Position numbers and translations under genes: made by a program
Origin: Rhizophagus irregularis
Lineage: Eukaryota
Direction: 5' to 3'
Length of the DNA stretch: 64,000 nt
NCBI RefSeq assembly: GCF_026210795.1
Contig: NC_089430.1
Coordinates: forward strand, 3,782,001-3,846,000
Notes under the pieces: generated by a model
What the model was told of the DNA's origin: nothing
What the model saw: only the letters and a program-made list of their open reading frames with translations
Database searches by the model: none
Shown here: positions 31,711 to 61,507 of the stretch, one piece after another
Numbering within the stretch: position 1 is the first letter of the stretch
Layout: every line of letters starts with the position of its first letter

Positions 31711-32070
31711 GAAATTTATTATTTTCTGAATTTCTATAAGTATTAATTATAACAAAGTTTTTTTTATTATTATATTTTATATAACTGACTGGTAGAAGAA
31801 GACTTTTATAGTTATAGTAGATATTTGCTTACTGTGAAAAAAAAACTCTTACAATTATTCTTTAAACTGTTTTACAGTCAAATTTATCTGCAATTTTGTT
31901 TTTTAATTAAAAACACTTTTAAATACCTTAAAATATTTTATTACATAAACCAATATTTTTGTAATAAATTCTATAATATTTTCTAAGTAAAAATTGAAAA
32001 AAAATTCAATTTGATTATTTGATTAATAGTTTTTTAAAAATAAATGATTGACAAATTATAACAAATAGTA

Positions 32071-34329
32071 CCGTATATCGCGGGCCACAGTACCCCGGGT
32101 ATCTTGCAAATTTTGGGCATTTGGACCTGTACCCGGGGGTATATTACATGAGTGTGGCCGGCATCATACACAGAGGAGGGGTACAGAATTTTTAAAATAC
32201 CCGGGGTACTTATTGCCATATATAATATCTGAGTATTATGGATAATCGCTATGATGTAATCTCTCGTTAAGAATTTCTAAATATATCCTATTTCTCATAT
32301 CTTGATACTTTTTCAAGATATTTTACACAAAATTACTTATCTAAATACCCCTATTCATACATAAAAATGTCTTTGTTTGATTTACGTGTCTTTATTTTAC
32401 GCATTTTTTTTTTCTTTCTGCTAAAAGTAAAATGGTAGTTATTGGCAACAAGAAAAATAAAAAAACACGCAATCGTTTACCACAAAAGAAACAAAGACAA
32501 TGGAATGTAAGGGAAAAATTAATGATAGTGCATTATTATGAAAATAATAATAGAAATATACGTGGAACTGCCAAAAGATTTGATATTCAGCCCAAACAAC
32601 TGCGTGATTGGAAAAATAAAAAAGGAACTTTGTTAACGACTGCTCCTCATGTGGCTAAACTTCATCCGGGTAAACCTGCCAGATATCTGAAATTAGAAGA
32701 TGATTTATTTGCATGGATAAGTGAAAAAAAAGCCAATGGAAATGCCGTTACTCGAAAATTAATTACCAATAAAGCCATTTCCTTATCCAAAAGTCCAGAA
32801 TTATTAGCAAATAATCCGGGTATTGCTGGGTTCAAATTTTCTAATAAGTGGCTTGAAGGATTTCTGGAAGATATGACCTTAGTGAGCGTCGTAGAACAAC
32901 AGTAGCACAGCAACTGCCATCAGATTTAATTGAAAAGCAAAATATTTTTTTGAGTTATATTATGTACCTAAGAATTCATAATAAATATGAACTAAAATAT
33001 ATAGGCAATATGGATGAAACGCCCATGTGGTTTGATTTGCCGAGTAATACAACTATAAACCAAAAAGGAGCAAAAACGGTAAGTATTCGTACAACTGGTC
33101 AGCGAACGATCATCATTTACAGTTATACTTGCATGTATCTGACGGTACGAAACTTCCTGCAGTTTGCATTTTCAAACTGAAAAATATTCCGAAAGAAAAT
33201 TTTCCACACGGTATTTACATAAGAGCTAATGAAAAAGGGTGGGTTAACGAACAGGAAATGTTGTGGTGGGTTGAGAACGTTTTGGACTTCAAGGAACCGT
33301 TTTGGAAATCCACGTTCTATATTAGTATTAGATTCTTTTCGTGGGCGCTATAGTAAATTCTGTCGAAAAATCGATTTGTGGAAAAAAATACAAACATTGC
33401 CGTAATTCCTGGCGGTTGTACATCCAAATTGCAACCATTAGACGTTGCAATTAATAAGAGTTTTAAATCTAAGGTAATTATTTGATCTTTTTACTTCAAT
33501 TTTATTCTTATTAGTTACTAATATTAGTGAAATTATAGGTTAAAAATCGGTATAATAATTGGATGATATCAAATATTCATACTTTTACTCCAGCGGGAAA
33601 GATTAAAAGACCTTCTTATTCAACAGTCGCAACATGGGTTAAAGAGTCGTAGGATGAAGTTGATGAAAATCTTATTCAAAGATCCTTTAAAAGTTGTGGA
33701 GTTTCGACAAATATTGATGGTTCGGAAGATGATTGTATTTTTGATCATGATAGTTTATTGAATAGAGATAACGAAGTGTTAGAAAATTTTGATAACTCAA
33801 CCGATGAAAATTATGAAGAAGAATATCCCGAAGAAACTAACTACGAGAATAAATGGGATGTTAAAGTTGTTGTTGAAGTTGGTCGGGAAGAAGATAATGA
33901 CAAAAGTGAAAGTGAGAAAGAGGAAGATGATGGTAATTATGATTACCAAGATTCTGATGATCATGGAGAAATGCGTCATAGATTAAGCGAATTAAAAAAA
34001 GTATATAAGGTAAATTTTTTTATATTATTTTATTCCATTTTATCAAATAAAATTGCTAATTATTAAACTTGCATATAATTAGAAATAAAGAATCGATTAA
34101 GGAGTATATTACTATAAATATATTTGTATTACAATAATGAATAACTAATAAATAATACTCCGTTTTAATAAATAAAGTTGTATCCGGGATTTATACCCCA
34201 GGTATTTTACAAATTCTAAGATTTTAAATTGAAGATTTCTATGTAAAGTATCCGGGTACTTTAAAATTCCGATAAATTTTTTTAAAGGGGTACTGTGCAT
34301 AGGAGGGTACTGTGGCCCACGATATACGG
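32071..34329 (+). mobile_element. pogo-family (Tc1/mariner) DNA transposon, full length
   Basis: 24-bp TIR CCGTATATCGCGGGCCACAGTACC with one mismatch at the right end. TA on both sides (32069-70, 34330-31). Confidence 0.93.
32432..34100 (+). pseudogene. pogo transposase (Brinker-like DBD, CENP-B HTH, DDE_1), disabled
   Basis: TAKRFDIQPKQLRDW, FKFSNKWL, NMDETPMWFD, LVLDSF and IPGGCTSKLQPLDVAINKSFK. Several frameshifts, a TAG near 33649, and an intron near 33474-33538. Confidence 0.88.
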
Positions 34330-34390
34330 TAGTTAAATTTTTTAAATTAAAATATCTTTTTATCTATTGATCCTAGAAATATAAAATGAC

Positions 34391-34620
34391 TACCATTTGA
34401 TGCGTCTTAATGAGAAGAATCTGATAGAAATAAAATTGTCCTTCTACAAATATTATGTGACAGGATAACTTATAAAATCTAAAATTTTATAAATTAATAT
34501 AACTTTTTATTTATCAATTTTAGAGTTATTATTTTATTACCATTAAATGCACCTTAATAAGAGAAATCTAACAAATATAATTTCATCTTTCTATGATCAC
34601 TAGATCTCAAGATATTTTAA
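34391..34620. repeat. Degenerate copies of the ~148-bp palindrome-containing repeat
   Basis: TACCATTTGATGCGTCTTAATGAGAAGAATC (34391) and TACCATTAAATGCACCTTAATAAGAGAAATC (34538) resemble the repeats at 47563/47710 with the same spacing. Confidence 0.55.
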
Positions 34621-38984: not shown

Positions 38985-39214
38985 CTTCTGGCCAATTAAA
39001 ATTTAACAATTTTTTATATATACAGTCAACTCCCTCTATAGTCACTATCACACCTATCCTCAAAAATCTTATATTAAAAAGAACCGTTTATAATCACAGT
39101 TATATAAAGAATATATTAAATAACTTGGCATCTAATAATCGTACAAAGATGTATCATAGCTTGTTAGAATCGTCTCACTGAGACGAATCGAATGGCGGTA
39201 GTTTTATCCTTTCC

Positions 39215-40187
39215 TTTCGCTATTGTTTACGGCCGTACCACCCATTGCCTCTTATGAGACTAATCTCGGTCCCGCGTCCTATCATCTTCAATAGGCAACC
39301 ATTAAACCGCACTTAATTCCTCAGGTAACAGCACCATGTAAGACATCCCCCATCGAGCCATTTTAGGCCGATCTGAAGCTGGTGACACGCCGCCTACTCA
39401 TCCTTAATCCATTGTACGATACTGGTACTCAATTTATTTTACGACCTTAGAGAGCACCTACTTTCATGGTGACTTTTGACAGGTAACGTCAACCATCTGA
39501 TGTAGGCCTAACCACTGGCATTTTAGGTACGGAGGTCGGCATCAATTACTGGCAGCCCGCGTCTAGCGCCGATAGTACATTGTTTGCCCACAAGTGGTAT
39601 ACTTATGTAGTGACCACTCGGACAGGAAGTAGCGAGGCTTCGTTCGGATGGCACCCCCTTATGGTGGGTATCGACCAGGAATCGCCAACGGGCCGAAGTG
39701 GAGGGGAATGACAACCCCCATGTATGCCTACCTGTGCGACGTGCACGAAGCACCTTGATTGGCTAAGGCCACAACAGAAGGTCTAACTACCACTAAGACA
39801 TTGCACCCTCAGCTTTACCATCTGTGACGACCATCTAGCCATTACTGACCCCAAGTGGTATCGTGCTGACCACCCAGACAGGAAGCCCCCCAAGGTATAG
39901 TAGCGACCTCCGCGACAGGACTGCGCACATGCCACGGGCCTCATAGCGAACGTTAGAAGGACACCACGACCCTTAGCTTGAAATGTGCGGCCTGACCGTA
40001 CACACTAATTCACCATGATGCAGTCCCAACTACACTAATCCCTGTACCTTCACGCTATTGGTTGTAGCGTCCGCAGTAAAATTCTTTTTTATTTCCGCTG
40101 GTCATAGGAATCGAACCTGCGACCTCCACCATACTCAGGCTTAATGAGGTCTCAGCGACTAACCACCGAGATAGGGCGACCAACCCT
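39215..40187 (-). mobile_element. tRNA-headed SINE-like unit 1 (divergent middle segment)
   Basis: Minus-strand head with GGTTCGATTCC B-box. Flanked by target motif copies at 39200-39214 and 40188-40202. Confidence 0.8.
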
Positions 40188-40202
40188 AGTTTTATCTTTT
40201 CC

Positions 40203-41067
40203 GCGTATTGTTTACGGCCAGACCACCCATTGCCTCTTATGAGACTAATCTCGGGCCTGCGTTCTATCATCATCAATAGGCAACCATTAAACCGAAAGAT
40301 TAATTCCTCAGGTAACAGCACCACGTAGAAGACATCCCCCATCGAGCCATTTTAGGCTGATCTGAAGCTAGTACACGCCGCCTACTCATCCTTAATCCAT
40401 TGTACGATACTGGTACTCAATTTATTTTATGACCTTTAGAGAAGACCTACTTTCATGGAGGACTTTCGACAGGTAACATCAACCATCTAGCACTTACATA
40501 CCACCATTTTATGTTAGCATTTGCGGTCTCACTCAAAGCGCCACTACAGCCCGCGATTACCTAGCACCGATAGTACAGTTGTTTACCCCAAGTGGTATAC
40601 TTACGTAGTGACCACTGACAGGGGAAGTAGCAGGCTTCTGTCCAGGATCACCCCTTATGGTGGTATCAACCACCAGGATCACCAACCAGGACCCAAGAAG
40701 TGGGGAATCGAACCCCATAACCATGCTACCTGTTCTGTGCACGAACACCTTGGTTGGCCTAAGACCTAACAGAAGGTCTAACTACCACTAAGACATTGCA
40801 CTCTCAGCTTTACCATCTAGGACGACCATCTAGCCATTACTGACCCCAAGTGGTATCGTGGAGTGACCACCCAGACAGGAAGTCCTCCCCAAGGTATAGT
40901 AGTGACCTCAAGGACAGGACTGCGCACATGCTAATGGCCTCATAGGAACGTTAGAAGGACACCATGACCCTTAGTTGAAATGTGCGGCCTAACCGTACAC
41001 ACTAATTCACCATGATGCAGTCCAACTACACTAATCCCTGTACCTTCACGCTATTGGTTGTAGCGTC
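40203..41067 (-). mobile_element. SINE-like unit 2, 5'-truncated (lacks tRNA head)
   Basis: Homologous to the other units but ends at GGTTGTAGCGTC, directly joined to the target motif at 41068-41083. Confidence 0.8.
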
Positions 41068-41083
41068 AGTTTTATCCTTTTCC

Positions 41084-42050
41084 TTTGCTATTGTTTACGG
41101 CCAGACTACCCATTGCCTCTTATGAGACTAATCTCGGGTCTGTGTCCTATCATCTTCAATAGGCAACCATTAAACCGAGACTTAATTCCTCAGGTAACAG
41201 CACCATGTGTAAGACATCTCCCATCGAGCCATTTTAGGCTGATCTGAAGCTAGTACACACCGCCTACTCATCCTTAATCCATTGCATGATACTGGTACTC
41301 AATTTATTTTACGACCTTTAGAGAGCACCTACTTTCATGGAGGACTTTCGACAGGTAACATCAACCATCTAAGCACCCTTCCATACCACTATTTTAGGTA
41401 CGAGGTCTCACTCAAAGCGCCACTACAGCCCGCGATTACCTAGCACCGATAGTACAGTTGTTTACCCCAGGTAGTATGGCTTATGTAGTGACCACTGACA
41501 GGAAGTAGTAGGCTTCGTCCAGGATCACCCCATGTGGGTATCAACCACCAGGATCACCAACCAGGATCCCAGAAGTGGGGAATCGAACCCCATAACCATG
41601 CTACCTGTTCTGTGCACGAACACCTTGGTTGGCCTAAAACCTAACAGAAGGTCTAACTACTACTAAGACATTGCACCCTCAGCTTTACCATCTAGGACGA
41701 CCATCTAGCCATTACTGACCCCAAGCGGTATCGTGCGACCACCTGCATATGCTCCCCCCAGCGCATAGAAACACCTCAGCGGACAGGACTGCGCACATGC
41801 CAATGGCCTCATAGTGGAACGTTAAAAGGACACCATGACACTTAGCTTGAAATGTGCGGCCTAACCGTACACACTAATTCACCATGACAGTCCAACTACA
41901 CTAATCCCCGTACCTTCACGCTATTGGTTGTAGCATTCGCAGTAAAATTCTTTTTTATTTTCGTGGTCGGGAATCGAACCTGCGACCTCACCATACTCAG
42001 GCTTACAATGAGCTTTCAGTAACTAAACACCGAGATAGGCGACCAACCCT
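41084..42050 (-). mobile_element. SINE-like unit 3
   Basis: Full-length copy followed by the target motif at 42051-42066. Confidence 0.8.
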
Positions 42051-42066
42051 AGTTTTATCCTTTTCC

Positions 42067-43032
42067 TTTGCTAATGTTTACGGCCAGACCACCCATTGCC
42101 TCTTAATAATTAATCTCAGGTCTTCATATTCTATCATCTTCAACGCAACCATTATACCGCACTTAATTCCTCAGTAACAGCACCACTATAGAAGACATCC
42201 CCCATCGGGCCATTATAGGCTGATCTGAAGCTAAGACACGCCGCCTACTCATCCTATACCCATTGCATGATACTATACTCAATTTATTTAACGACCTTTA
42301 GAGAGCATCTACTTTCATGGAGGACTTTCGACAGGTAACATCAACCATCTAAGTACCCTTCCATACCACCATTTTAGGTACTAAGTCTCATTCAAAGCGC
42401 CACTACAGCCCGCGATTACCTAGCACCGATAGTACAGTTGTTTACCCCAAGGGTATACTGTACGACCACTCGTACATGGTAAGTAGCTTCTCGTCCAGGT
42501 ATCACCCCTTATGGCGGTATCAACCACCAGGGATCACCAACCTAGATCGTTAAGTGGGGTCGAACCCCATAACTACGCTACCTGTTCTGCGCACGAACAC
42601 CTTGGTTGGTCTCGCACCTAACAGAAGGTCAAACTACCACTATGACATTGCACCCTCAGCTTTACCATCTAGGACGACCATCTAGCCATTACTGACCACA
42701 AGTGGTATCGTGGAGTGACCACCTGAACAGGAAGTCCCCCCCAAGGTATAGTAGTGACCTCAAGGACAGGACTGCGCACATACCAATGGCCTCGTAGGGA
42801 ACGTTAGAAGGACACGCACCCTTAGTTGAAATGTGCGGCCTAACCGTACACACTAATTCACCATGATGCAGTCCAACTACACTAATCCCTGTACTTTCAC
42901 GCTATTGGTTGTAGCGTCCGCAGTAAAATTCTTTTTATTTCCGTGGTCATGGGAATCGAACCTGTGACCTCACCATACTCAGGCTTAATGAGGGTCTCAG
43001 TGACTAACCACCGAGATAGGGTGACCAACCCT
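42067..43032 (-). mobile_element. SINE-like unit 4
   Basis: Full-length copy followed by the target motif at 43033-43048. Confidence 0.8.
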
Positions 43033-43048
43033 AGTTTTATCCTTTTCC

Positions 43049-43552
43049 CCTGTACAAACAGTCTTATGACTTTATCTTTTATTTATACTTTGAACTTCGA
43101 AAATATAATCGAACAATATTACAAAAATAAGAAAATAAACTAATAAAAAATAAAAAGAGTAGCTTCACGATTCATACAAGTAAAGAAATCTAAACTAAAA
43201 TAAAATTAAAGCAAAGAAAAACTGAACTATTACAGAATCGCATACCCCAACTTTACCCAAAGGCCAGTGCTGAGTCAACTATCCAACATCCAAAAATCCA
43301 GTCCGTTACCAGAAAGAAATCCTAAGAGGTTGAACTGTTAAGCGGCGCAGAAAATCCAAGTGCGAGATCCAAGATCCACCCCGAATTATAGAAGAGAATA
43401 TCCAAGAAATCCAGGAATCCTGAGAGACTGACGCCAAAGAAGAGTTGTGTTGTTGTGAAGAAGTAGAATTAGGAGAAGCATTTGTAGATGGGCCACGTAA
43501 TTTGGAAGCAGCCGAGATACCCTGCGACTCTTCCCAAGCATGGAAAAGAACA
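43049..43552 (-). mobile_element. LINE 3'-terminal fragment (~500 bp)
   Basis: Near-identical to 53130-53630 (3' UTR plus ORF2 C-terminus ...SWISHLDF). Confidence 0.88.
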
Positions 43553-43821
43553 CACTAGCAAGCTAGTCGAATTAATCTTTAACCGAAGTTTTATGTGTAA
43601 ATTCTGGCTGACATAAAATGTTGTAAAATTTTGTAATTCAATAGAGTAAATTCATCAATCGCTAAAGCGCTGTATATAAATTTCTGATACAGAATGATAA
43701 AATTTGTATTCATAAAGAAAGAGGAAAGGAAATAGGAAAGCTTAAAATAAGCATGAAAAAAATGAAGTGTAAAAGGAGAATAATAAAAGGAAGGTAATTA
43801 ATTAATAAGAAACCAGCGCAA

Positions 43822-46145
43822 TTAGCGCATTAAAAAAACAGGATGAACAAAATCAGCGGGTAATTCCCACGATGTTCGGAAATCAGAAGGAGCAGGGTAA
43901 GGATGTGAATCAAACCAAGGTGCACAAACATCCAATAACATTAAGATATCACAAGGTTTAACACGACCTAGTTTGAAAGAAAACCGTGTTTCACTATTCC
44001 AAAGATGTGAAAATGTCGAAGAGGAAGCCGATTTGGTGATAACAGATTGAATGGCATCTCGAAGATACTTCTTTGATACCGAGGAAGTATTGTGCTTGGA
44101 AATTAATAACCAAAGGAAATTGTAGAAGAGGTACATAAATGAAGCACTATTCGAGAGTATCCTTCAGGACTATATCAATAATGGAACGACTAAAGCCAAG
44201 AGTTTTGAAATCTTGATAATCAATAGCAGGGCAGTTCGGACCAACAAAAGGACCAGAGGTGGGTTTGTCAGTGATAAAATGACTTGCAACTACAGAAGAG
44301 GGATTCAAAACCACTTTTTGGATAGAACCTGTAAACTTAGAAGACACGAACGCAACAGAAGATTGATGTGAACGTTCTTTTAAACAGAAGGAAACGTCAG
44401 GACGTGAGGATACAAGATTACGTATATTCTGGACAATTGAGTAATCAGTAGTAGACATAGTCAAATTATAGGAGGTAGGAGGAATGACTATAGCAGGATC
44501 CTTAGTGGCCATCCACATAGAAGAGTCAAGAAGATCGGGGTGAACAACATGTCGTGAAAATTTGCTCCGGTCTGATAAAAGGTCTTTACGCGTACTTCGA
44601 CGAGCAAGTTGTTTCTTCGTAGGGTGGGAGATAGATTTGTGAGCAGAATATGAGATAAGAGTTCGGGCAGAGAGTGAACCACTGTCGTCTCAAGAACATG
44701 ATGGAAAGCATAGGATTTGCGGTAGGAAACTCCTAGACGTCGGGAAGTAACGTCTTTATAAAAACCATCAGCGTGTCTTTTAGACACACGATTACAAGGT
44801 AAAGCGAAAGGAGGACAAGGAGGAGGGGAAGGAGTGTGAACAAGTTTTTTGTCATGAATATGACAAGCATGCGAAATGAGACATAACATAGGCAGCACGA
44901 GTCTTGCAAAACGGGCAACCAAAATAAAGGCCAAGGTAAAAACAAGATTGTTGGTATCGAAATTGAATAAAGGTACGAGAAGACGTCTATTATTACGATG
45001 AGAAGATGACCAACGGGCAAGAGAGGTAACCCGTTGTGTTAATAAAAGCTGGCGTAACCTATTAAAATATTTACGTCGAGCATGGGAGGGAATACGGTTT
45101 TGTCGGTAAAAGAAAAAGGTTAAAAATTTTGATAAAATAAATTTCAAATTAGGAGAAGGGCGGTCAGATGTAAATTGAAATGGATCCATAGTTGAAAGGA
45201 GAGGAGAATTGGTATGAACTGAATAACAATTATCCGAATCAGGAGTGGGGTCCAAAAGAAAGTAACAGTTGCCTCGGCGAATAGAATATAAACGGTTAGA
45301 GCTAACATTTCGAGCAGGACGTATCCGTCCATCCAAGATGGTACGTATTGTGAAAGTGTAAGATGAACACTGTACATTATCATGAAGAAGATGGGCTGAA
45401 GTAGAAGTTGCCGGTAAAGGTTCCGCAGGTGTACAATTCAAAGAAAGGACTGGAGAAGGGACGTTAATGTCATAATCAGCAGTATCTTCTGAAACTGAAA
45501 TTCGGGGAGTAATAAGAGAGGAGTCTAGGAATGTATTTTGAAAGGGACTTATAGGTTCAGAAGGACGTGATAAAGGTGGAACCAATAAACGTATTGTAGA
45601 AGGAGATAAAACCAGACGCGTAAAAGACAATTTAGTCTTAATTTTCTGTGCGCGCTTAAAAGATGCAGGGGAAATCATAGAGGATACGCGTTTACAAAGA
45701 AATTTATGAGTACGCCGTGAAGGGCGTAAACAATTGGTGCGTCGTGTAGAAGGGGTACGATAAATCTAAGATGAGATTAGGATCAGCCTCGTGTTTAGAA
45801 GCCCAAATAGCTAATGGAAGAGGAGGTAGATTATCAATCAATGGATCATCATGTGATTGATGATCGTCAACGAGGGGATAGCGAAATCCTTTTCGAATCC
45901 GCAGTAGACGAAAGAGTAGCAAATGCAAGTGTAAAAGGCGTTTTTGTTCAGAAAGAGATCATCTACATGAGCGCCAAAAGCGAGTAAGCACGTGACTTGG
46001 CGAAGAGTTATCAGGAAGAGAGTTGTAACGAGCAAAAAGAGTTTCTTGTTTAAGGGCGCACTTAGCGCGAAGGTCCTCAACTTCGCGAAGTTTGGAAAGA
46101 ACTTCATCCCAACTCAAGGTTGAGAAGTCGTGAGAAGAGGCCATA
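43822..46145 (-). pseudogene. Degenerate long ORF of unknown function (~770 codons with stops and frameshifts) joined to the LINE 3' end
   Basis: Consecutive minus-strand ORF pieces from MASSHDFSTLSWDEVL to ...ELPADFVHPVFLMR*. No introns evident; includes a CPFC...CHIH cluster. Confidence 0.6.
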
Positions 46146-46292
46146 GGCCAGAATAAGAATAGAAAAGATAAAAATAAAAGAAAAAGTAATAAAAAACTTT
46201 GGAAAAAAAATTTTTTATTTTTATGTAAATAATGTCGTGAGGGCAACGGGAGAGAGTTCAGTTTTTAGTTTTTCCTAGTTTTATCCTTTTCC

Positions 46293-47263
46293 TTTGCAAG
46301 TGTTTACGGCCAGACCACCCATTGCCTCTTATGAGACTAATCTCTGTGTCCTATCATCTTCAATGGGCAACCATTAAACCGAGTACTTAATTCCTCAGGT
46401 AACAGCACCACATAGAAGACATCCCCCATCGGGCCATTTTAGGCTGATCTGGAGCTAGGTACACGCCGCCTACTCATCCTATACCCATTGCATGATACTG
46501 ATACTCAATTTATTTTACGACCTTTAGAGAGCATCTACTTTCATGGAGGACTTTCGACAGGTAACATCAACCATCTAGTACCCTTCCATACCACCATTTT
46601 AGGTACTAAGTCTCACTCAAAGGCCACTACAGCCCGCGATTACCCAGCACCGATAGTACAGTTGTTTACCCCAAGTGGTATACTTTGTAGTGACCACTCA
46701 GACAGGAAGTAGCAGGCATCTGTCCAGGATCACCCCTTATGGTGGGTATCAACCACCAGGGATCACCAACCAGGACCCAAGCGAGAAATCGAACCCTATA
46801 GCCATGCTACCTGTTCTGTGCACGAACACTTTGGTTGGTCTAAGACCTAACAGAAGGTCAAACTACCACTAAGACATTGCACCCTCAGCTTTACCATCTA
46901 GGACGACCATCTAGCCATTACTGACCCCAAGTGGTATCGTGGAGTGACCACCCAGACAGGAAGTCCCCCCGCGGTATAGTAGTAACCTCAGGACAGGACT
47001 GCGCACATGCCAATGGCCTCCATAGGGAACGTTAGAAGGACACCATGACCCTTAGTTGAAATGTGCGGCCTAACCGTACACACTAATTCACCATGATGCA
47101 GTCCAACTACACTAATCCCCTGTACCTTCACGCTATTGGTTGTAGCGTCGCAGTAAAATTCTTTTTATTTCCGTGGTCATGGGAATCGAACCTGCGACCT
47201 CACCATACTCAGGCTTAATGAGGGTCTCAGTGACTAACCACCGAGATAGGGTGACCAACCCTT
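46293..47263 (-). mobile_element. SINE-like unit 5
   Basis: Full-length copy between target motifs at 46277-46292 and 47264-47279. Confidence 0.8.
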
Positions 47264-47410
47264 AGTTTTATCCTTTTCCGATCACTGGCTGACGAGTTAT
47301 TCAACAAAATGTTAAACATCGGCATTATAATATTTCTTGATTTACGTTTACTGCGCCATTTAACATTTTGCTAGATTTCTCAGTACCTAGTGATTGTAAA
47401 AAGACGATTT

Positions 47411-47790
47411 ATAGCTCGTTGGAATCGCCTCATCGAGACGAATCGAATGGTGGTAAGCTCATCTCTCTATGATCAATATATTGACGGAGTTATTACTTAA
47501 AAACTATTTAATATTTTTTAATTTCGGAAATTGATCTAGTGATTGGATTTCAATGTATCTTATACCATTAGATTTGTCTCATCAAGACGAATCGAATGGT
47601 AGTAAGATCGTTTTTCTAGGATCAATATTGGCAGAGTTATTATACAAAAACCATTAATATTTTTTTAATTTCGGAAATTAATCTAGTGATTGGATTTCGA
47701 CGTATTTTATACCATTAGAACCGTCTCATCAAGACGAATCGAATGGCGGTAAGATCATCTTTCTACGATTAACATTGGCAAAGTTACGAT
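47411..47790. repeat. Three ~148-bp internal repeats with long palindromes (host copy 1)
   Basis: TACCATTAGA(T/A)...GTCTCATCAAGACGAATCGAATGG at ~47563 and ~47710, with a variant at ~47420. Confidence 0.8.
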
Positions 47791-48214
47791 ACAATAAAGT
47801 TTTAAGTATAATTCTGGCTAAAATTATGTTAATTTTTGGCCGGAATTATGACATACAAATATAAGAAATTTTTTATATAGTCACATCTCTTTATAATCAC
47901 CAAATATGGACTGTCCCAAATGTGTGACTATAAAGAGAGTTGACTGTATATATGAATTATTTTGTAAAATTTAAATAGCAATTTATAATATTTTTTTTAT
48001 TTATTTAACTTTATAATTAATAGAATTTCATATCAATTTAATTTTATTTAATTATATTATATAATAAGGGGAGTTACATATATTACGTAATATTCATTTT
48101 AATATAAACTTACTCCCCTCTCCCCTTTGTCAGATTTAATAACCAATCAAATTATAATATTTATAAATTATATATTTTATTAAGTGTAACGTAAAATTTT
48201 GGTTACCCTCCTCC

Positions 48215-51200
48215 TATACATGCGGGTGAATTAGGATTAGGTGATGCCAAAATATTACGGCAGTGTAATGTATTACACCACAAAATGTCAAAATGAGTTA
48301 CACTACCGTAATGCCAAATTGGCGAATTGACGAAATGAATTACACTGTCGTAATGCCGAATTGATGAATTGACGAAATAAATTGCACTGCCATAATGCCG
48401 AATTGACGAAATGACAAATTGCCAAATTGCCAAATTGATAAAATAAATTATACCGTATTACCGTTGAATTGCACTTTATTAAAATCATTAACTACTTTTA
48501 ATTATTTACTTCAAATAATTTTTATCAAATTATAAATCTTTATCGCATAAGTTTATAATATATAAAAGCAGTACAAAAAAATTTATTATATATAAAACTA
48601 CTACTCAGAAAAAAACTATTACAAATTACCTATTTTAAAGAAAAACAAAAAAAAATACTACTGTAATTACTGCGTTTCATTTTCTTTAGTGCTATTAACT
48701 TTAGCAAGAATATCATCTACATTAAATTTCATTTCACCATGATCAATTTTTTCAGGTTCCATTTCTTCCTCAGACCTCAGTATGATTTAATTTAATCAAA
48801 TTACCTACTATTAAATCTGAATCATCTTCGGTTAATTGATCATTATTTCCTTCTTCATCTTCTGGAACCAAATTTTCAAAAGGATCATTATCATTTTCTA
48901 TTTCATTAATAAACATATCTGAATCTGAAGTAAGTGAATTAGTATAACTTTGCATTATTTCACTAAAAGCGTCATCAGATAGATTTTTGCCAACATAATT
49001 AAGTTCTTGTTGTGCATTCAAAATATAAAATGAATGCAATCTTGCCATATTGGATACTTTTTCCACTTTAAGTCTAATAAATATAAAAAAGAATTTAATA
49101 AAAAAATATAAATTTTAATAAAATAAATATTCTATGAATATACCTGCTTCGTCTTTTTTGGGTAAACCAATTTAATACTGAGAAAACACGCTCACAGCTT
49201 GCACTATGAGGAACAATAGAAAGAATATATAAAGCCAATTCTTGCAAATAATGATTTGATTGTTTACATCCTAACCACCATGATTGGGGAGTTTGAAGTT
49301 CGTCAATATAAGGAAAATTATAAGGAGACTTAAAATCATCATAATTATTCATTTGAACAGCAAGTGTAAATGCTGATTTTAATCCTCCGCCCATTTTTGA
49401 CCATAAGGCAAAAGCTTTCCTTTGGATTAGTAATTGATAGGTTTTAGGTATAAATCCTTTTCCGCGAAATTTTGGATGCAAAAAATATGCTAGTAAATAT
49501 AATTCATGATCAAACTGCTTCCATCTATTATTATAAAATTGAATGCATTTTTGCCGAAACTCTTTTAATTCTTCAGTACTTTCAGTAGATAAAGCCTTGA
49601 TAGCAGTAGCCATTTGAATGAGAGCCAAAAAAACATCAGCCATAGTTGCATTTTTACCTTCAATACTCTTCACAGCATTTTTTGCAGGTTCTAAAATAGT
49701 TGTAAGACTTTCAACATTCAACCAAAAATTTCGATTATTTACTAAATTTTGTAAAGTTTGATTCATTGCTTTAGAATCAGCAATTAACATCTAGAAATAT
49801 AATAATAAAATATTTAATAATTTGACATTAACTTAGAAATTAACTACAATTTCACTTACATTTTTGAAAATAGTTTCTAAACGTAATACTGATGTACAGC
49901 AATCCCAAGCAGTACTCCATCTTGTTTTAACCGAACTTTTTAATCTACCTCCAACAATTAACTCTTTTTTGATTTTTTCACGAAGAGTAGCTCCAGATTG
50001 ATGTGACTCAGCAAAATAAGTAACAAATTTCTGACAGTTAATAAGTATATTATTTGAAAATGGATTTTTTTTCATAATATCAGTACAAATTAATTGCACG
50101 TGATGAGCGATACAACGGACTGGCAAAATTTTAGGATATTCTTCAGATATTAATCTCTTAGCTAATTGCATAGCACTAGCATTATCCGACACTACTGAAG
50201 AAAAACGCTGTGGGCCTATATCTTTAAGGACTTTCTTTATTTCTTCTGCTGTAAAAAGACCAGTGTGAGAGTTTTTTGAACAGTCTTTAACTTTAATTAC
50301 ATATTCTTTTCGTTCAGGAGTAATTATAACAAAAGAAAAATAAGAATGATGGTTGCTACTTGTCCATCCGTCTAACACTTAATATTGAAATAAAAATAAT
50401 ATTAATATTTATTGGAGATATAATAAATAAAAAAAAATTATTTACCAAGTGAAAGATTTTCTTGTTTTTTAAGTATTTCTTCAACATCAACGGTAATTCT
50501 TGCCACTTCATTACTAAGCCAAGTATCACTTAATGTTTTCCTGTCTGGCAATTGATAACTAACGCATAAATTCATTACAAGATCAATAAAGAATGGACTT
50601 TCTACAGTAGAAAAAAGGACGCCACAGCATACAAAAAATCTAGTCAATGCTCTATTACAAAGATATTGTTGTCCAGGATCTATTGCTGATTTTTGTAATT
50701 TAGATGTGATTTTTGGTTGAATTCCAGTTGCAATTTCTTCATTAAGTTTTCGCTTCCTTGTAGTAATTCGACCAGAAGATTGCTCATTATTTTGTGCAAG
50801 AATTCTGAGATATTGTTCTTTAACTGAAGCTTCAACTTTTTCACATTATAATGCTAAATGTGCCATCATATCTGGAACTCTTCCTCTGTTCCAAGCATCG
50901 CCACAATATACACAAGTACTAGGTGAGTGGCCAAATTTTCTAGCTTCCTCTTCAATAAAATAATTCCATATATCATTTTTTTTCTTGCCAGGCTTCTTGA
51001 ATTCTTCAGTTTCCGGAAGATCTGATAATTCTACAAAATTTAGATCTTGAAAAGATCTTGTTTCATCAAGAGAATCTGTTTCATTAGCCATAATTTCTCT
51101 TTAATTAACTTTTGTAATAGAAAATTTGAAAAAAAATAGCATGCGAAAACTTTTTCCGATAAATATTGATCAACCTGATTACATTTTAGCCAATCATTAA

Positions 51201-52546
51201 CTGGCGTCAAACACGTTAATCATACAAATTTTTAGGATAACGATATTAGAATTAAAAAATTTCACCTAGAAATTCCAAAGATTAAAAAGTAATAATGAAA
51301 AATTTTAGGTTTAATAAAGTTTATGATTCTAGTTTACACTTTTTAAAAATGAATAAATAATAAAATTAAAAAATTACATGAATTTCATTCTTATGATGCG
51401 AGAATATTTTATTTCTTAATCACTGGCAAAATAATTAAGTTTCGCAAATAATCATAATTTCTAGTTAATCCAGTTTTATTATTCTTACTTATACAGTCTT
51501 AAATTTTCGGTTTGATAATTCATTTGAATTTTATCGATAGAAACCAAAACTGAACTGGTATATCAATAAGACACTTGGTCACGTCCCTTTCTAAAATTTT
51601 TTTTTTTAAAAAAAAGTATATATATAAATGATATTTCCAAAAATAAAAAAAAAATAAAGGAACCCTCTTTTGAAACATACCATAAGAAATATAGCTCAAT
51701 TGCTTAAGGTGCACTCCAAGGAAAAGTAGTTCATTTTACTGCTAACAATGATTCTGAAGAAAATTGAAGAAACATTCTCTTAAATCACCCTGTATTATCT
51801 AACCATCAGTCAACTGTCCAAGAAAGCAATATCTGAAAATAATAAAAAGAAAAAATGTTAGAAATATTTCCAAATAAAAATAATAATAAAAAAGCTTCGA
51901 ATAACCATAATAAAGAAGTAACGTACAGTATCTGTAAGTAAATTACGCACTATATTCCACTATGCCAGCAATTTAATACTTACCGGTTAAATTGCATAAA
52001 AATAGAAGAATAAGTTCCATTTAAATGACAAAACTAGTTCTCTAGTAAAAAGAGTTTCGTCTATAAATTATTAAAAATCCTATCAGAAAAGAAGTTTTTG
52101 GTAAAGTCACGCAGTTTTTCTGAAGGAAAAAAAACACACTTAAATCCCTTTAAATTATACAAAATCAAAACCTACTTTTATATGGAAATTATACATTAAT
52201 TATATTGGCAATGATCTTGCTAAAAATCGAACAGATTTAAAAAATAAACACCTTTAACCCCTAAATTTTACAAAAAAAAATTGTCTACCTTTATATGGAA
52301 GTTGTGTATCAGCTGTGTCACTAAAATAATTCAGTTAACTTTTGACAATTATGATTTATGACCAATCAGCATTACGCCAATTCACCAAATTGGTGCAATT
52401 CGGCATTACGTCAATTCACTAAATCAGCACAAATCGGCATTACGGCAATTCAGCATGTGCTATTTTAGATCGGGTCTGGTGTAATATATTTCGGCATTAT
52501 ATAGTGTATTGCCAAATTACCATGGGTTAATTCACCACCATGTATA
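48215..52546 (-). mobile_element. hAT-superfamily DNA transposon, full length
   Basis: TIR TATACATGCGGGTGAATTA vs TATACATGGTGGTGAATTA. Subterminal GTAATGCCGAATTG repeats at left, inverted copies at right. Encodes a hAT transposase. Confidence 0.85.
48667..51091 (-). pseudogene. hAT transposase (BED zinc finger, RNase H-like core, dimerisation domain), three introns, premature stops
   Basis: DIWNYF...CVYC...MAHL, LDGWTS, SDNASAM, RCIAHHVQL, TRWSTA, AYFLHPKFRG and PHSASCERVFS. Stops at 50846 and 48770. Confidence 0.88.
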
Positions 52547-53129
52547 CCCTCCCCCCCTTTGATAATTACATAATATCTGTAAGCTTCCTAATTGAAACAT
52601 AGAATTTTTTATAATCATAATTATTTTTATTATACACTGTATTAATTAATTTAACTATATAAATTTATATTAGAAAATACATTATTAGTTAATTAATAAT
52701 ATAATTTGTAATTAGATAGTATAATAAAACAATGCAATAAATTTTTATATTAAAAAAAAATTTTAATTAACATTTTGTTTTGATTGTTTTATGTATTTTC
52801 TAATAAAATATTAGTGTTTTTCAATTAAAAATACAGTCAACTCCCTCTATAGTCACTCCCGTTATAGTCACATTCTACTATATAGTCACACCAGTTGAAT
52901 GTTCAAAACACTTTATTATTAAAAACTATCCTATATAGTCACAATCTATCTATAGTCACTATCACACCTATCCTCAAAAATCTTATATTAAAAAGAACCG
53001 TTTATAATCACAGTTATTTAAAGAATATATTAAATAACTTGGCATCTAATAATCGTACAAAGATGTATCATAGCTTGTTAGAATCGTCTCACTGAGATTA
53101 ATCGAATGGTGGTAGTTTTATCCTTTTGC

Positions 53130-55523
53130 TGTGCAAACAGTCTTATGACTTTATCTTTTATTTATACTTTGGATTTCGAAAAGTAATCGAACAATATTAC
53201 AAAAATAAGAAAATAAACGAATAAAAAATAAAAAGAGTAGCTTCACGACTCATACAAGTAAAGAAATCTAAACTAAAATAAAATTAAAGCAAAGAAAAAC
53301 TGAACTATTACAGAATCGCATACCCCAACTTTACCCGAAGGCCAGTGTGAGTCAACTATCCAACATCCAAAAATCCAGTCCGTTACCAGAAAGAGATCCT
53401 AAGAGGTTGAACTGTTAAGCGGCGCAGAAAATCCAAGTGCGAGATCCAAGATCCACCCCGAATTATAGAAGAGGATATCCAAGAAATCCAGGAATCCTGA
53501 GAAACTGACGCCAAAGAAGAGTTGTGTTGCTGTGGAGAAGTAGTATTAGGGAAAGAATTTGTAGATGGGCCACGTAGTTTGGAAGCAGCCGAGATACCCT
53601 GCGACTCCTCCCAAGCATGGAAAAGAACATTCCGATACAGCCAAATTTCACCATATAATTCGACTTGGAAGTCATTAAGAAGGGGAGAAATAATCTTGTA
53701 TATAACAGAGAGAGGAAAGTATTGATTCAAAAATGCCGTTAAATGCGCAGGCAACAATCCTCGAGTAAGCCAAAGACAGGATGAAGAAGGAGCTTCATAG
53801 TTCCAGCAATCCAAAGCAAAGAATGCAGTATGAAAGGAATTATCCAAAGATTTCAAGGATAAGAAAGAAGATAAACAAGAATCTCTAAATTTAATGACTT
53901 CAGACCGGTGTGTTAAACAGGGATTTAAATCTGGTAAAATATAAGGACAAGTCCAAAGATGATTCAAATCTTCAGGAGCAGAATTACACTGCGGACAGAG
54001 CCAGTCAGGAGAATATAAGTAAGGTTTACGTTGTTGAAGAGTAGTTAAGGTAGGCAACATATCCAAAAGAAGTTTAATGCGGAAGATCCAAAATTCAGGA
54101 CGACCATTCCTATGTGAAACAAAACCTTTAATTTGTGAAAGGCAAAAATATATACCAGCCCAATCAAAAAGTGAAGGAGAACCAAGAGCAGTAAAACGCG
54201 CTAGTGAACAGAAAGATAAGAGAGCACGAGCATCTGCAATAGAGCGGAGAAAATGTCGAATATTCACGTCAATAGGCAGGGAGTTAAAGGTCAACAAGCA
54301 TGGAGCATAACAAAATGTCGAAAGTAAAGTAGTGGGTTGTAAAGACGAATGAGCGTCTTTTGCCAAAGAATCCGCTTGTATATTGTAAATATCATCGCCA
54401 TGAGCAGGGACTTTAATCAATTCGACATTAAGATTACGGTCCATGATAAGTTGTCGAATAAAAAGCCAAAGAAGATGATTAGGTTTTCGGAGCAACCTCG
54501 GTGAGAAAGGAGCATCAACAAACCGTGTCCATAGTGAAATTAACTGACTACAATCAGTATGAACAGAGATTGACGAATTACGGGAAAGGGCATTCAGTCC
54601 TAACAGGACAGCAGAAATTTCAGAACGCAAAGCGGAAGGAAAGTAAGAAGGGAGATGCATGGAAGAAGATTCCAGAACAAGTCCAACATCATCAAGAGCG
54701 ATCCAAGCAGAAGTCATGGAAGAAGGCGAAGAATCATTGGCATGATGGAACGAACCATCTGTGTACAAAGATTGCACCGAAAGTGGTAAAATAGTGTCTT
54801 CAATTCTATCGATACTATCCTTAAAAAGAGGAGAAAGAGCGAGAGACGCGTTCGAAAAATGAACAAGAGCCAAGGAGGTTGCATAACTCCATGAAGTAGA
54901 TAGAGTAATGGGAAGATAAGCCGCGAAAACTTTGGCATTTCTGGTAGGATAGCCCACAGTATCCGATAGGGTTACATTAAAAAAGCATTTCTCGCTATTA
55001 CAGCGTTGTCTGATGGCAGATTTCATGGATAAGGCGGGAATGTTAAGAGCACAACCGGGACAAGGGTTATAGGATCGTTCATCAGCCGAGGTAGATACAG
55101 GAAGCCAATGAGACATAATAGCCGAGTTTTGTTTCTTATAAGTGATACACACACGACCAACAGATAAAGTTTGAGTAGCAGAGTCAAGAGTAATAACCCA
55201 TTGAGGATAAAAAGAATAATCTTTAACAGTATGATCTAATAAACAAGGAGAAGCTAAAGTAAAAGAAGAATTAATAAAATATGAAGATAAAAGTAAAGTA
55301 GAAGAAGAAGAAGAGAGAAAATTATTATTGATAAAAGTAAACCAATTAGGGATCCGTCCTTTACGACCAACGATGCCAAGATAACGAAGGTCAGGCCAAT
55401 TCATAAGATAACGTCCACAAGGAGAAACCAACTGAGCAAGCACAAATATATTCAGGTTTTTCCAAAGTTTCCAACTCGATTGAAAAATGGAATGAGGTAG
55501 AATAGATCGGAGTGGCAGAGCAG
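53130..55523 (-). mobile_element. 5'-truncated non-LTR retrotransposon with 16-bp TSD
   Basis: AGTTTTATCCTTTTGC at 53114-53129 and 55524-55539. Encodes RNase H and a C-terminal zinc finger. Confidence 0.92.
53383..55443 (-). CDS. LINE ORF2 C-terminal part: RNase H plus CCHC zinc finger (RT lost by truncation)
   Basis: LYTDGS, SALRSEISAVLLGL, VHTDCSQLI, KVPAHGDDIYNIQADSLAK and CPQCNSAPEDLNHLWTC. Confidence 0.88.
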   Translation of the reverse strand: MLAQLVSPCGRYLMNWPDLRYLGIVGRKGRIPNWFTFINNNFLSSSSSTLLLSSYFINSSFTLASPCLLDHTVKDYSFYPQWVITLDSATQTLSVGRVCITYKKQNSAIMSHWLPVSTSADERSYNPCPGCALNIPALSMKSAIRQRCNSEKCFFNVTLSDTVGYPTRNAKVFAAYLPITLSTSWSYATSLALVHFSNASLALSPLFKDSIDRIEDTILPLSVQSLYTDGSFHHANDSSPSSMTSAWIALDDVGLVLESSSMHLPSYFPSALRSEISAVLLGLNALSRNSSISVHTDCSQLISLWTRFVDAPFSPRLLRKPNHLLWLFIRQLIMDRNLNVELIKVPAHGDDIYNIQADSLAKDAHSSLQPTTLLSTFCYAPCLLTFNSLPIDVNIRHFLRSIADARALLSFCSLARFTALGSPSLFDWAGIYFCLSQIKGFVSHRNGRPEFWIFRIKLLLDMLPTLTTLQQRKPYLYSPDWLCPQCNSAPEDLNHLWTCPYILPDLNPCLTHRSEVIKFRDSCLSSFLSLKSLDNSFHTAFFALDCWNYEAPSSSCLWLTRGLLPAHLTAFLNQYFPLSVIYKIISPLLNDFQVELYGEIWLYRNVLFHAWEESQGISAASKLRGPSTNSFPNTTSPQQHNSSLASVSQDSWISWISSSIIRGGSWISHLDFLRRLTVQPLRISFW

Positions 55524-55671
55524 AGTTTTATCCTTTTGCGATCACTGGCTGATGAGTTATTAAACAAAATGTTAAGCATCGGCATTATTATATTTCTTGA
55601 TTTACGTTTACTGCGCCATTTAACATTTTGCTAAATTTCTCGGTACCTATGGATTGTAAAAAGACGATTAA

Positions 55672-56050
55672 TAGCTCGTTGGAATCGCCTCATCAAGACG
55701 AATCGAATGGTGGTAAGCTCATCTCTCTGTGATCAATATTGACGGAGTTACTACTTAAAAACCATTTAATATTTTTTAATTTCGGAAATTGATCTAGTGA
55801 TTGGATTTCGATGTATTTTATACCATTAGATTCGTCGCATTAAGACGAATCGAATGGTAGTAAGATTGTCTCTCTAGGATCAATATTGGCAGAGTTATTA
55901 CACAAAAACCATTAATATTTTTTTAATTTCGGAAATTAATCTAGTGATTGGATTTTGATGTATTTTATACCATTAGAACCGTCTCATCAAGACGAATCGA
56001 ATGGCGGTAAGATCATCTCTCTACGATTAATATTGGCGGAGCTACGATAC
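55672..56050. repeat. Three ~148-bp palindrome-containing repeats (host copy 2)
   Basis: TACCATTAGATTCGTC-GCATTAA-GACGAATCGAATGGTA at ~55821, with related copies at ~55680 and ~55968. Confidence 0.8.
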
Positions 56051-56307
56051 AATAAAGTTTTGAGTATAATTTTGGCTAAAATTATATTAATTTTTGGCCG
56101 GAATTATGATATACTAATATAAGAAATTTTTTATATAGTCACATCTCTTTATAATCACCAAATATGAGGATCATCGCAACTCTTTCCTGAATTTTTGAAA
56201 ATACTAATAAAAATTTATTTTTGAAATTTTCGTTCGAAAATTTCTAAGTGCTCGTTCAAAATACTAATATCTTCCCAGTTGCTTTCCTCTTTACTGAGCT
56301 TTAAACT

Positions 56308-59413: not shown

Positions 59414-61507
59414 CACCCTATAAAAAATATGTATACAGTTTTTATACTGTATATACGTATTTTTGATACAGTTTGCATTTTTACATACGGCATATCAGTA
59501 TAATGTATACTGTTCGCAAAATGTGCTTAGTAAAAAATACAATAAAGTATACGGTAAACATACTGTGTGATACGGTATATTAAATTCATACGTCTATAAC
59601 GTATATCATTTCTACTGTATATCAGTATTTTGTATACGGTTCACAAAAATATTGTAAATAAAGAATACGGTATACGTATTATTCTACAGTATATTAAAAT
59701 TCATACGTTTATAACGTATTTTCTACAGATATACACAGGTCAAATAAATAAACATCAGATTTTTGCCCTTTTTAATATGGCTGTCTGATTTTTTTGGCAA
59801 TTTTAATATAATATTTCCGATTTTAATAAATATTTCTGATTTTAATATAATATTTCTGATTTTTAACATGAAATTGCCGATTTTTGGTTATTTGTAATAG
59901 GATTTTTCGATTTTAATATATAACATGTGATTATGTATTACGGTTTAATATTTATTTATTAACTTAGATTTTTTTTTTATTTCAGTTATAATTATTTTTT
60001 TGCCTTTTTTTCTTAAATATAAATACATTTAAATTAAATAACTCATAATTTAAAATATAAACAAATATTATATTTTTTTACATATATTTCAAAGTATAGT
60101 TTGAGCATTTTGGCTGAAGTAAATCTTATTCTTTTAATTAAAAGTAGTTTAGTAAGTTTAAAACTGTTAAGATCATAAAAGTACAGTTAATATTTTTGGA
60201 ATTATTTACATTTTTTATATTATATAGTAGTATTAAATTACAAATTTTTTTACCTTTAGAGCGTATTTTGAGATCTTTAGCCAAAGTAAATCAACTTCTT
60301 ATATTAATTGTAAGTTGTTCGGCAGGTTAAAATCTACTTGGATATTAATTTTCACGAAGGTACAGTTAATACTTGATGAGTTATTTACAATTTTCACAAC
60401 AGTACTCATTCACGACTTTTATTTTTTTCATTTTGTCACTTCAGAGCGTATTTTGAGATCTTTAGCCAAAGTAAATCAACTTCTTATATTAATTGTAAGT
60501 TGTTCGGCAAGTTAAAATCTACTTGGATATTAATTTTCACGAAGGTACAGTTAATACTTGATGAGTTATTTACAATTTTCACAACAGTACTCATTCACGA
60601 CTTTTATTTTTTTCATTTTGTCACTTCAGAGCGTATTTTGAGCACTTTATCTAAAGTAAACCAACTTCTTATATTAATTGAAAGTTGTTTAGCATGTCAA
60701 AATCTACTTGAATATTAATTTTCACGAAGGTACAGTTAATACTTGATGAGTTATTCACGATTTTCACAATGGTACTCATTTACGAATTTTATTTTTTTCC
60801 GTTTTGTCACTTCAGAGCATATTTTGAGCACTTTAGTCAACGTAAATTGACTTCTTTTATTAATTGAAAGTTGTTTAGCATGTCAAAATCTACTTGAATA
60901 TTAATTTTCACGAAGGTACAGTTAATACTTGATGAGTTATTCACGATTTTCACAATGGTACTCATTTACGAATTTTATTTTTTTCCGTTTTGTCATATTT
61001 TGAGCACTTTAGTCAAAGTAAATTGACTTCTTTTATTAATTGAAAGTTGTTTAGCATGTCAAAATCTACTTGGATATTAATTTTTACAAAGGTACAGTTA
61101 ATACTTGATGAGTTATTCACGATTTTCACAACAGTACTCATTTACGAATTTTATTTTTTCCATTTTGTTACTTCAGAGCGTATTTTAAGCACTTTAGCCA
61201 AAGTAAATCGACTTCTTTTATTAATTAAAAATTGTTCAGCAGCTTAGAATCTACTTGAATATTTATTTTAATGAAGGCACAGTTAATATTTGTGGAGTTA
61301 TTAATTTTTTATAATTGTGCGTATTACATTAAATTACAAGTAAATTTATATTCTTAATGTATTTTGTTTAAAATTTAATTATTTAAGATTAGTTTTTTAT
61401 TTAATATTGCTTAATAAAATATTTTTTAAATTTTAATTCAATATTACAATATAATTTTTTATAAAAATATATATTTCATAATGTATATACAATTTTTTTG
61501 TATAGTG
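59414..61507. mobile_element. Possible CAC-terminated non-autonomous DNA element
   Basis: Begins CACCCTATAAAAAATATGTATACAG. Weak inverted match ending ...GTATAGTG at 61507. Dense TATAC(G/A/T)GT subterminal repeats at 59430-59720. No TSD seen. Confidence 0.35.
60095..61310. repeat. ~185-bp tandem repeat, about 6.5 copies
   Basis: AGAGCGTATTTTGAG... unit starts at about 60258, 60443, 60628, 60814, 60995 and 61175. Confidence 0.92.

Follow-up and report, generated by a model that had tools for sequence, protein, structure and literature searches.

In a 64,000-nucleotide stretch of the genome of the mycorrhizal fungus Rhizophagus irregularis (contig NC_089430.1, positions 3,782,001 to 3,846,000; hereafter the window), a long interspersed element (LINE), a short interspersed element (SINE) and a non-autonomous protein-coding element are inserted at one 16-bp site of a miniature inverted-repeat transposable element (MITE). 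This site, which we denote site A, is DNA of the host element and is duplicated at a constant length of 16 bp; all three kinds of insert use it, and insertions at it recur in other samples. The inserts likely arrive through nicking of the site by the LINE endonuclease (EN), with the SINE and the coding element likely borrowing the LINE enzyme. A preliminary description of the window had proposed a LINE/SINE system aimed at a single 16-bp site inside a non-autonomous DNA transposon.

The host element and its 16-bp target

Two copies of the host element lie on the plus strand of the window. Copy 1 (39023..47946) is flanked by TA, has both terminal inverted repeats (TIRs; 39023-39045 and 47924-47946) and holds six inserts. 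Copy 2 (52834..56166) has the left TIR, and TIR comparison placed the loss of its right TIR at the start of a second LINE copy, L3. The preliminary description gave the two copies within one span of 39023..56166, and we correct their limits here. The TIRs are 23 bp long and match at 21 of 23 positions, no open reading frame (ORF) is present, and the intact, empty element is ~960 bp long and organised as four ~147-bp subrepeats. The right halves of the two copies are 94% identical and the left halves 98%, and ~100 bp behind the left TIR is absent from copy 1. Beyond 56166, the normal host right end continues in contigs of two sequencing runs (X2 and X15), as seen from their loose ends at this position. 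With its TIRs, TA flanks, high copy number and no ORF, the host has the features of a MITE. This non-autonomous TIR element is fungal and of the R. irregularis type, and we take it to be Tc1/mariner-like from its TIRs and TA flanks.

Both host copies are interrupted at the site A motif, which was located on the plus strand at all nine positions of the preliminary description. Seven motif copies bracket the six inserts of copy 1 (39200..39214, 40188..40202, 41068..41083, 42051..42066, 43033..43048, 46277..46292 and 47264..47279), the last of them joined to the right half of the host in the junction alignment. The other two form the target-site duplication (TSD) of the single LINE copy in copy 2, L2, at its 3' junction (53114..53129) and its 5' junction (55524..55539). 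A motif scan allowing up to two mismatches recovered eight of the nine copies, with 0.28 matches expected in shuffled sequence; the same scan gave one unrelated additional match with two mismatches at 26569. The copies at 39200 and 40188 are each one base short (one T and one C, respectively), possibly owing to assembly errors. The motif ends in CC in copy 1 and in GC in copy 2, following the allele of each host as first described.

In the three other subrepeats of the host, the slot of the 16-mer is held by different 16-bp spacers of equal position and length, and the 16-mer is therefore native host DNA that derives from the target. The duplication measures 16 bp, because differing insert ends fix both of its edges. 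On the 3' side, three element types with differing 3' ends all depart from the host after base 16, with the exception of one SINE copy (S2) that matches one base further; the other edge is set by S2 and L2, both of which are truncated at the 5' end. All seven inserts at site A in the window are on the minus strand, and all seven are in the same subrepeat (subrepeat 0), with none in the three siblings. Host-left sequence was carried along at none of the seven junctions.

Recurrence was assessed in Logan contigs from 4 of the 24 runs listed, which came from four studies with three organism labels; one of the four is possibly the source of the window itself. Counts of loose ends and joints refer to the rows listed. 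Empty copies of site A were found in all four runs as loose ends at 55524 with the host-left consensus (16, 19, 6 and 10 contigs), and in runs X4 and X15 there were also joints that skip the entire LINE. Further joints enter the motif from LINE positions 53363, 53516, 53519, 53542, 53693 and 54470, which adds five or six 5'-truncation points to the window's own, since 53516 and 53519 are possibly one locus. Three of these joints were seen in three of the four runs, and three continue into another LINE 3' end. These joints represent separate events of truncated insertion, as well as tandem arrays, at one and the same base, and they support independent recurrence of insertion at site A.

For the SINE, the 3' junction of copy S5 was chosen for its low-copy upstream flank. 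Eight of the 24 loose-end rows listed (65 contigs) fall at the outer edge of the motif (46274-46278). Four of these eight lead into host-left sequence (48 contigs; 11, 19, 7 and 11) with an agreement of 0.62-0.92, two lead into a SINE head, and the remaining two show a mixture (agreement 0.44 and 0.65). None of the 24 rows listed falls at the SINE's own end. Consistently in the four runs, summed depth falls 7-13-fold across the outer edge of the motif and 1.5-1.9-fold across the SINE end, the latter no more than at the next step within the SINE. This shows that the SINE strongly prefers site A. Under the criterion of Kojima (>20% of flanks of one type), the contig evidence for the SINE, which does not count loci, points well above 20%.

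The LINE, the SINE and the coding passenger

The LINE copy L2 (53130..55523, minus strand) is 5'-truncated and has no poly(A) tail; as previously noted, it is the only insert at site A in copy 2 and carries an RNase H domain. Its open frame of 714 codons also encodes a C-x2-C-x8-H-x3-C knuckle and is 96-97% identical to R. irregularis proteins, the name borne by all 37 matches. Full-length relatives of this family, which we call family A, are 1774-1795 aa long with an apurinic/apyrimidinic endonuclease (APE), a reverse transcriptase (RT), RNase H and a C-terminal knuckle, and one of them (P0003, 96% identical to the L2 protein) has the domains Exo_endo_phos, RVT_1 and RNase_H. Family A is thus an APE-type retrotransposon without long terminal repeats (non-LTR), whose ORF2 combines APE with a non-LTR RT. 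The signature that target-primed reverse transcription (TPRT) leaves, i.e., 5' truncation together with a TSD, was found in L2 and S2 in the window and in the further truncation joints of the contigs. The intact ORF2 relatives suggest that the system is young. A 673-aa protein (P0054) that clusters with family A and is 41% identical to the RRM-containing ORF1 of a sister family is probably the family A ORF1, judging by sequence.

An AlphaFold model of the EN-RT region (predicted local distance difference test score 74.8) had its best structural matches with human L1 ORF2p (E 3e-32) and L1-EN. L1 provided the only full APE-type ORF2 among the matches, and the ENs of TRAS1 and R1Bm were absent among the matches listed down to rank 50. 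Searching the PDB with the EN alone by phmmer gave three weak matches, none of them a retroelement. The RT tree comprised 106 proteins, none of them a named clade reference, and the named proteins among the 120 best matches listed were from Rhizophagus. A pattern for the LINE 3' untranslated region (UTR) had no match in viral contigs, and none of 166 pattern matches to the LINE C-terminal alignment in metagenome contigs was confirmed. In a separate observation, the metal-binding glutamate of the L1 APE aligns to an aspartate in Rhizophagus LINEs of the P0003 family (relatives of 53386-55527).

The six inserts of copy 1, whose number had been given correctly, consist of four full-length SINEs, one 5'-truncated SINE and one 3.2-kb element. 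The SINEs are S1 (39216..40187), S2 (40204..41067), S3 (41084..42050), S4 (42067..43032) and S5 (46293..47263), all on the minus strand; in the junction alignment, S2 lacks the tRNA-like head and has the motif on both sides. The element is ~970 nt long, and the five copies are 83-93% identical. Each compared with the other four, they carry 11.5, 3.6, 6.0, 7.6 and 3.0% substitutions from S1 to S5, the most in the leftmost copy and the least in the rightmost. The SINE lacks a poly(A) tail as well as any ORF reaching 100 aa, and nowhere does its sense strand show five consecutive T. The SINE is non-coding, flanked by TSDs and dispersed, with 106-1068 contigs per run on a 240-base junction stretch, and its 3' pattern had no match in metagenome contigs. 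The head of S5 has A-box-like and B-box motifs (~47175-47260), and a perfect B box lies at nt 72-73 in all four full-length copies. These boxes point to a putatively tRNA-derived head, which Rfam and ARAGORN do not confirm: tRNA-Sec scored 24.5 and 15.2 bits on the head, below gathering, no Rfam family matched the SINE at its gathering score, and ARAGORN found no tRNA in it. We further observed a second B-box-like motif at ~nt 460-470 of the sense strand (S2, S3 and S4); together with a 43-bp duplication inside the element, it suggests a dimeric or composite SINE.

The 3.2-kb insert (43049..46276, minus strand) is a third, protein-coding passenger, and in this respect the proposed pairing of a LINE with a SINE was incomplete. 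It consists of a 132-bp 5' UTR, an ORF (46144-43825), a 270-bp spacer and a family A 3' end (43049-43552). The last 504 bp, 96% identical, is all that it shares with the LINE. A 779-aa ORF, present in one named assembly in four full-length versions that are 98-99% identical, is found here as a frameshifted copy. The same joining of this ORF to a LINE C-terminus was found in the gene models P0044, P0172 and P0269. We considered whether the insert could be a truncated or internally deleted family A LINE and rejected this possibility, the ORF being unrelated to the RRM ORF1s. Non-autonomous protein-coding elements with a LINE-like 3' end are known as HAL1 or half-L1; in contrast to these, the cargo ORF here is DUF8211-like and unrelated to the RRM-type ORF1 of these LINE families. 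It should also be noted that in another gene model the 779-aa ORF carries the tail of a third sister LINE family (P0009/P0019/P0172; 54% identical in the C-terminal half).

Residues ~260-535 of the cargo protein fold confidently in the predicted structure and are common to more than 100 diverged proteins. By sequence the protein appears DUF8211-like: two of the ten relatives looked up carry this label, and the six named ones are from Rhizophagus or Glomus. A coiled coil followed by a basic folded domain might fit a nucleic-acid-binding, ORF1-like role. No Pfam family was common to 72 members, the ORF had no sequence match in the PDB, and the model had no Foldseek match at E ≤ 0.001 in the PDB or BFVD. 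The VIA matches listed cover the N-terminal coiled coil only, so that the domain at ~260-535 was barely probed, and Atlas matches of 0.76-0.78 (OrsD) are leads only. As a further observation, AGG stands at the start of the SINE (47263), the coding passenger (46276) and L3 (56167), whose 5' ends all appear to be full length, with one additional A in S5.

A probable second site, the proposed mechanism and its rivals

In contrast to the single site first proposed, site A is probably not the only target in the host. A second, unrelated 16-bp site (site B) was located on the plus strand. It is empty in copy 1 (47893..47908), and in copy 2 (56151..56166) L3 begins immediately after it, on the plus strand and thus opposite to the inserts at site A. 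L3 (56167..59425) is a degenerate copy of a sister LINE family (family B) that has lost its 3' part; it has an RRM ORF1 from 56308 and an APE domain, and is 79-89% identical to P0015. The family B RT is ~77% identical to that of family A and forms a separate branch of the tree, and the N-terminal EN regions of the two families are 66% identical. The SINE apparently uses site B as well. In the gene model P0020, which comes from a named assembly, a translated family B 3' UTR is followed at the end by site B and then a SINE head; six residues match site B (four identical), eight match the first SINE codons (seven identical), and the model terminates at the in-frame stop of the SINE. In addition, an 11-base stretch resembling the SINE 3' end is joined to site B in one contig of run X3. 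Family B therefore probably has its own target, with the SINE using both sites. The 8-bp core of site B occurs seven times in the window, four of them within hosts; we also observed that it recurs near the host left end, at 39090 and 53004.

We propose that the ORF2 protein would nick the plus strand where the 16-mer ends on the right and prime reverse transcription on the RNA 3' end by TPRT, and that a second nick in the other strand, 16 bp away, would generate the TSD. The right-hand TSD would retain the host context and stay a target, and arrays would grow rightward, in line with the leftmost SINE copy being the most diverged and the rightmost the least. The coding element would be recognised through the LINE's own tail and the SINE possibly through a small shared 3' hairpin, while the sister LINE family would have adopted a second site, close to the right TIR and used in reverse orientation, into which the SINE would also insert. 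A multicopy MITE could offer such elements a low-cost, renewable landing site, akin to the suggested safe harbour. The partnership of LINE and SINE, which we infer, draws a stronger argument from the shared target than from the hairpin, which supports it weakly: the only feature common to both tails is a 9-nt hairpin with a four-base loop.

Several observations count against this proposal. The SINE and LINE tails do not align and so share no 3' tail, and in the best folds the hairpin forms in two of two LINE tails and three of five SINE tails. The order of divergence along the array is non-monotonic, with the middle copies out of order. In an alignment by hidden Markov model, the EN hairpin as predicted lacks two residues relative to L1 and is near-identical in families A and B, so that, as modelled, it does not explain the choice of site. 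The case for site B comprises three observations, one of which is a gene model that is possibly spliced. For copy 2, the tables cover 24 of 1200 rows on loose ends, 15 of 105 on joints and 12 of 47 on gaps, and those for the S5 3' junction 24 of 124 loose-end rows; furthermore, contig depth is not copy number, and contigs give no on-target percentage. Finally, two of the 24 rows listed for the LINE 3' end (1 and 3 contigs, at 53133) have a flank other than site A. These flanks, in contigs whose LINE family is unassigned, translate like the P0020 junction and resemble the second site B core near the host left end. LINE 3' ends joined to sequence like the core at 39090 and 53004 suggest a third landing spot.

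Since the EN hairpin does not explain the site, priming by read-through RNA is a live rival or co-factor. Here a tail-less read-through RNA would pair with the nicked target, to which an EN of modest specificity returns. No insert has a poly(A) tail, and the first run of five T after a SINE lies 136 nt downstream, inside the host. The similar ENs and nearly identical hairpins of families A and B, which have unrelated targets, point the same way, and target co-transcription can strengthen target-specific integration according to the cited text (PMC4494074). However, the constant 16-bp duplication requires two fixed nicks, the junctions in the window carry no host-left sequence, and EN swaps determined the site for TRAS1/SART1 as described in PMC1919474. 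We regard RNA-driven specificity as somewhat unlikely, and it is compatible with nicking by the LINE EN. A looser preference, in which the EN favours a short T-rich motif that the abundant MITE offers many times and many copies lie elsewhere, appears improbable. It would accord with the minority share of loose-end rows listed, with contigs that give no genome-wide fraction, with the repeated site B core, and with crocodilian SINEU-1 and SINEU-2, reported as only 23% and 13% on target (PMC4494074). It accords poorly with the rows listed, none of which is a SINE-end loose end, with the depth cliff at the outer edge of the motif, and with the exclusive use of subrepeat 0 in the window.

Slightly less probable still is that a few chance insertions were multiplied with the MITE and that arrays arose by unequal crossing-over between filled hosts. 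Copy 1 retains both TIRs and could move whole, the SINE copies look mosaic in sliding windows, and many junction contigs could stem from few insertions. Our counts may be inflated in this way, but hitchhiking could not produce the many private 5' junctions: no fewer than six different 5' ends of the LINE, counting the one in the window, each form a junction of their own at the identical base, as do a truncated SINE and the coding element, and the copies within one array are only 83-93% identical. The 16-mer brackets every insert, as an intrinsic terminal repeat of the inserts would, a reading already raised in the preliminary description. However, empty hosts hold one copy of the 16-mer, which corresponds by homology to the spacers of the other subrepeats in both position and length; the 16-mer also varies with the host allele and flanks 5'-truncated copies, which leaves this last alternative practically no chance of being correct.

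Relation to known systems and neighbouring elements

The closest parallel comes from crocodilians, in which Tx1-Mar LINEs and the SINEs SINEU-1/2/3 target Mariner-N4_AMi (Kojima 2015, PMC4494074). In that study, 313 of 347 SINEU-3 copies are on target, a 16-nt TSD is expected and tandem copies occur, and Mariner-N4_AMi has two preferred positions without sequence relationship, which different LINE families occupy in opposite orientations. In both systems an APE-type LINE and a SINE are inserted into a non-autonomous element of Mariner type that is abundant; the TSD measures 16 nt and is sandwiched between tandem copies, there are two unrelated sites in opposite orientations, and in both the partnership was deduced from the shared target. 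The novelty implied for the mechanism in the preliminary description was therefore overstated, this combination being already published for crocodilians (PMC4494074). In contrast to the crocodilian case as described there, the host organism is a fungus, the LINE encodes RNase H, a protein-coding non-autonomous passenger takes part, the ~970-nt SINE has a tRNA-like head instead of the U1/U2 heads of SINEU, and the target is one of four host subrepeats.

In Xenopus, the APE-type LINE Tx1L inserts at a specific sequence in the non-autonomous Tx1D (PMC1950540, PMC1919474, PMC4494074), which resembles our system in the fixed sequence within a non-autonomous DNA transposon. However, Tx1D is called a piggyBac family member in these sources whereas the present host is TA-flanked and Tc1/mariner-like, and their cited passages mention no SINE for Tx1L/Tx1D. 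The EN hairpin of Tx1L is extended (11 residues; PMC1950540), whereas the predicted hairpin here is shorter than that of L1 by the same two residues as in R1Bm. The Tx1 clade is described with an animal host range (PMC4494074), and the nearest proteins here are from R. irregularis (96-97%). With a non-animal host and a hairpin that is not extended, the LINE shows neither of these two Tx1 traits. Most target-specific families are placed in early-branched elements with a restriction-like endonuclease, Tx1 and R1 (Kojima & Jurka, PMC4640811).

Among fungi, MoTeR1, FoTeR and Cnl1 are likewise sequence-specific non-LTR retrotransposons, described as using a restriction-like endonuclease and telomere targets (PMC12857005); in contrast, the present system uses an APE and lies inside a transposon with a 16-bp TSD, FoTeR having no detectable TSD in that account. 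The fungal pairs Mg-SINE/MgL and SINE2-1_BG/Tad1-24_BG, reported to share a 3' tail (PMC3747384), also involve a tRNA-headed SINE dependent on a LINE. However, no shared tail beyond the small hairpin was found here, and the cited passages on those pairs mention no target specificity. Two transposon surveys of arbuscular mycorrhizal fungi list SINE, MITE and L1-Tx1 labels, and the survey text and supplement table available to us mention neither nesting nor target specificity (PMC11075540, PMC11952901). In the literature searched, mostly outside subscription journals and Repbase Reports, we found no fungal APE-type case of transposon targeting. The strategy is published in animals, and the fungal host, the RNase H LINE, the tRNA-headed SINE, the coding passenger and the second site of a sister family appear new.

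If correct, an APE-type system with a 16-bp TSD in a mycorrhizal fungus would bring this strategy to another kingdom, perhaps also to another clade, in close convergence with the crocodilian case. How APE endonucleases gain specificity is called unclear in the papers cited, and two sister enzymes with different targets would form a natural pair for this question. Among the multicopy "hypothetical genes" of R. irregularis, a part (of the GLOIN_2v1682945 type) would be retro-mobilised cargo, and strains could be told apart by their filled and empty sites. A fuller scenario, which we advance tentatively as possible but doubtful, is an independent fungal origin in an RNase H-encoding LINE lineage outside Tx1 and R1, with two sister families on two unrelated 16-bp MITE sites, a SINE shared by both, a LINE-tailed cargo that spreads a folded protein, and specificity conferred partly by read-through RNA instead of the EN hairpin.

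No autonomous partner with the TIRs of the host was found within the window. A pogo-like element near 32.0-34.3 kb was considered for this role and rejected, as its TIRs differ. This degenerate pogo/Tc5-type transposon (~32000-34330) has CENP-B_N and HTH_Tnp_Tc5 domains and its own TIRs, and is followed by a host-subrepeat remnant from a related MITE (34365-34436). Between the two host copies lies a hAT element (~48200-52560) with DUF659 and Dimer_Tnp_hAT domains and subterminal repeats. Elsewhere in the window, a MULE transposase ORF with a FAR1 domain (9342-10787) is open over 481 codons. A 185-bp tandem repeat array (60068-61308) and 92-bp palindromic repeats (61700-62110) are probably further non-autonomous elements.

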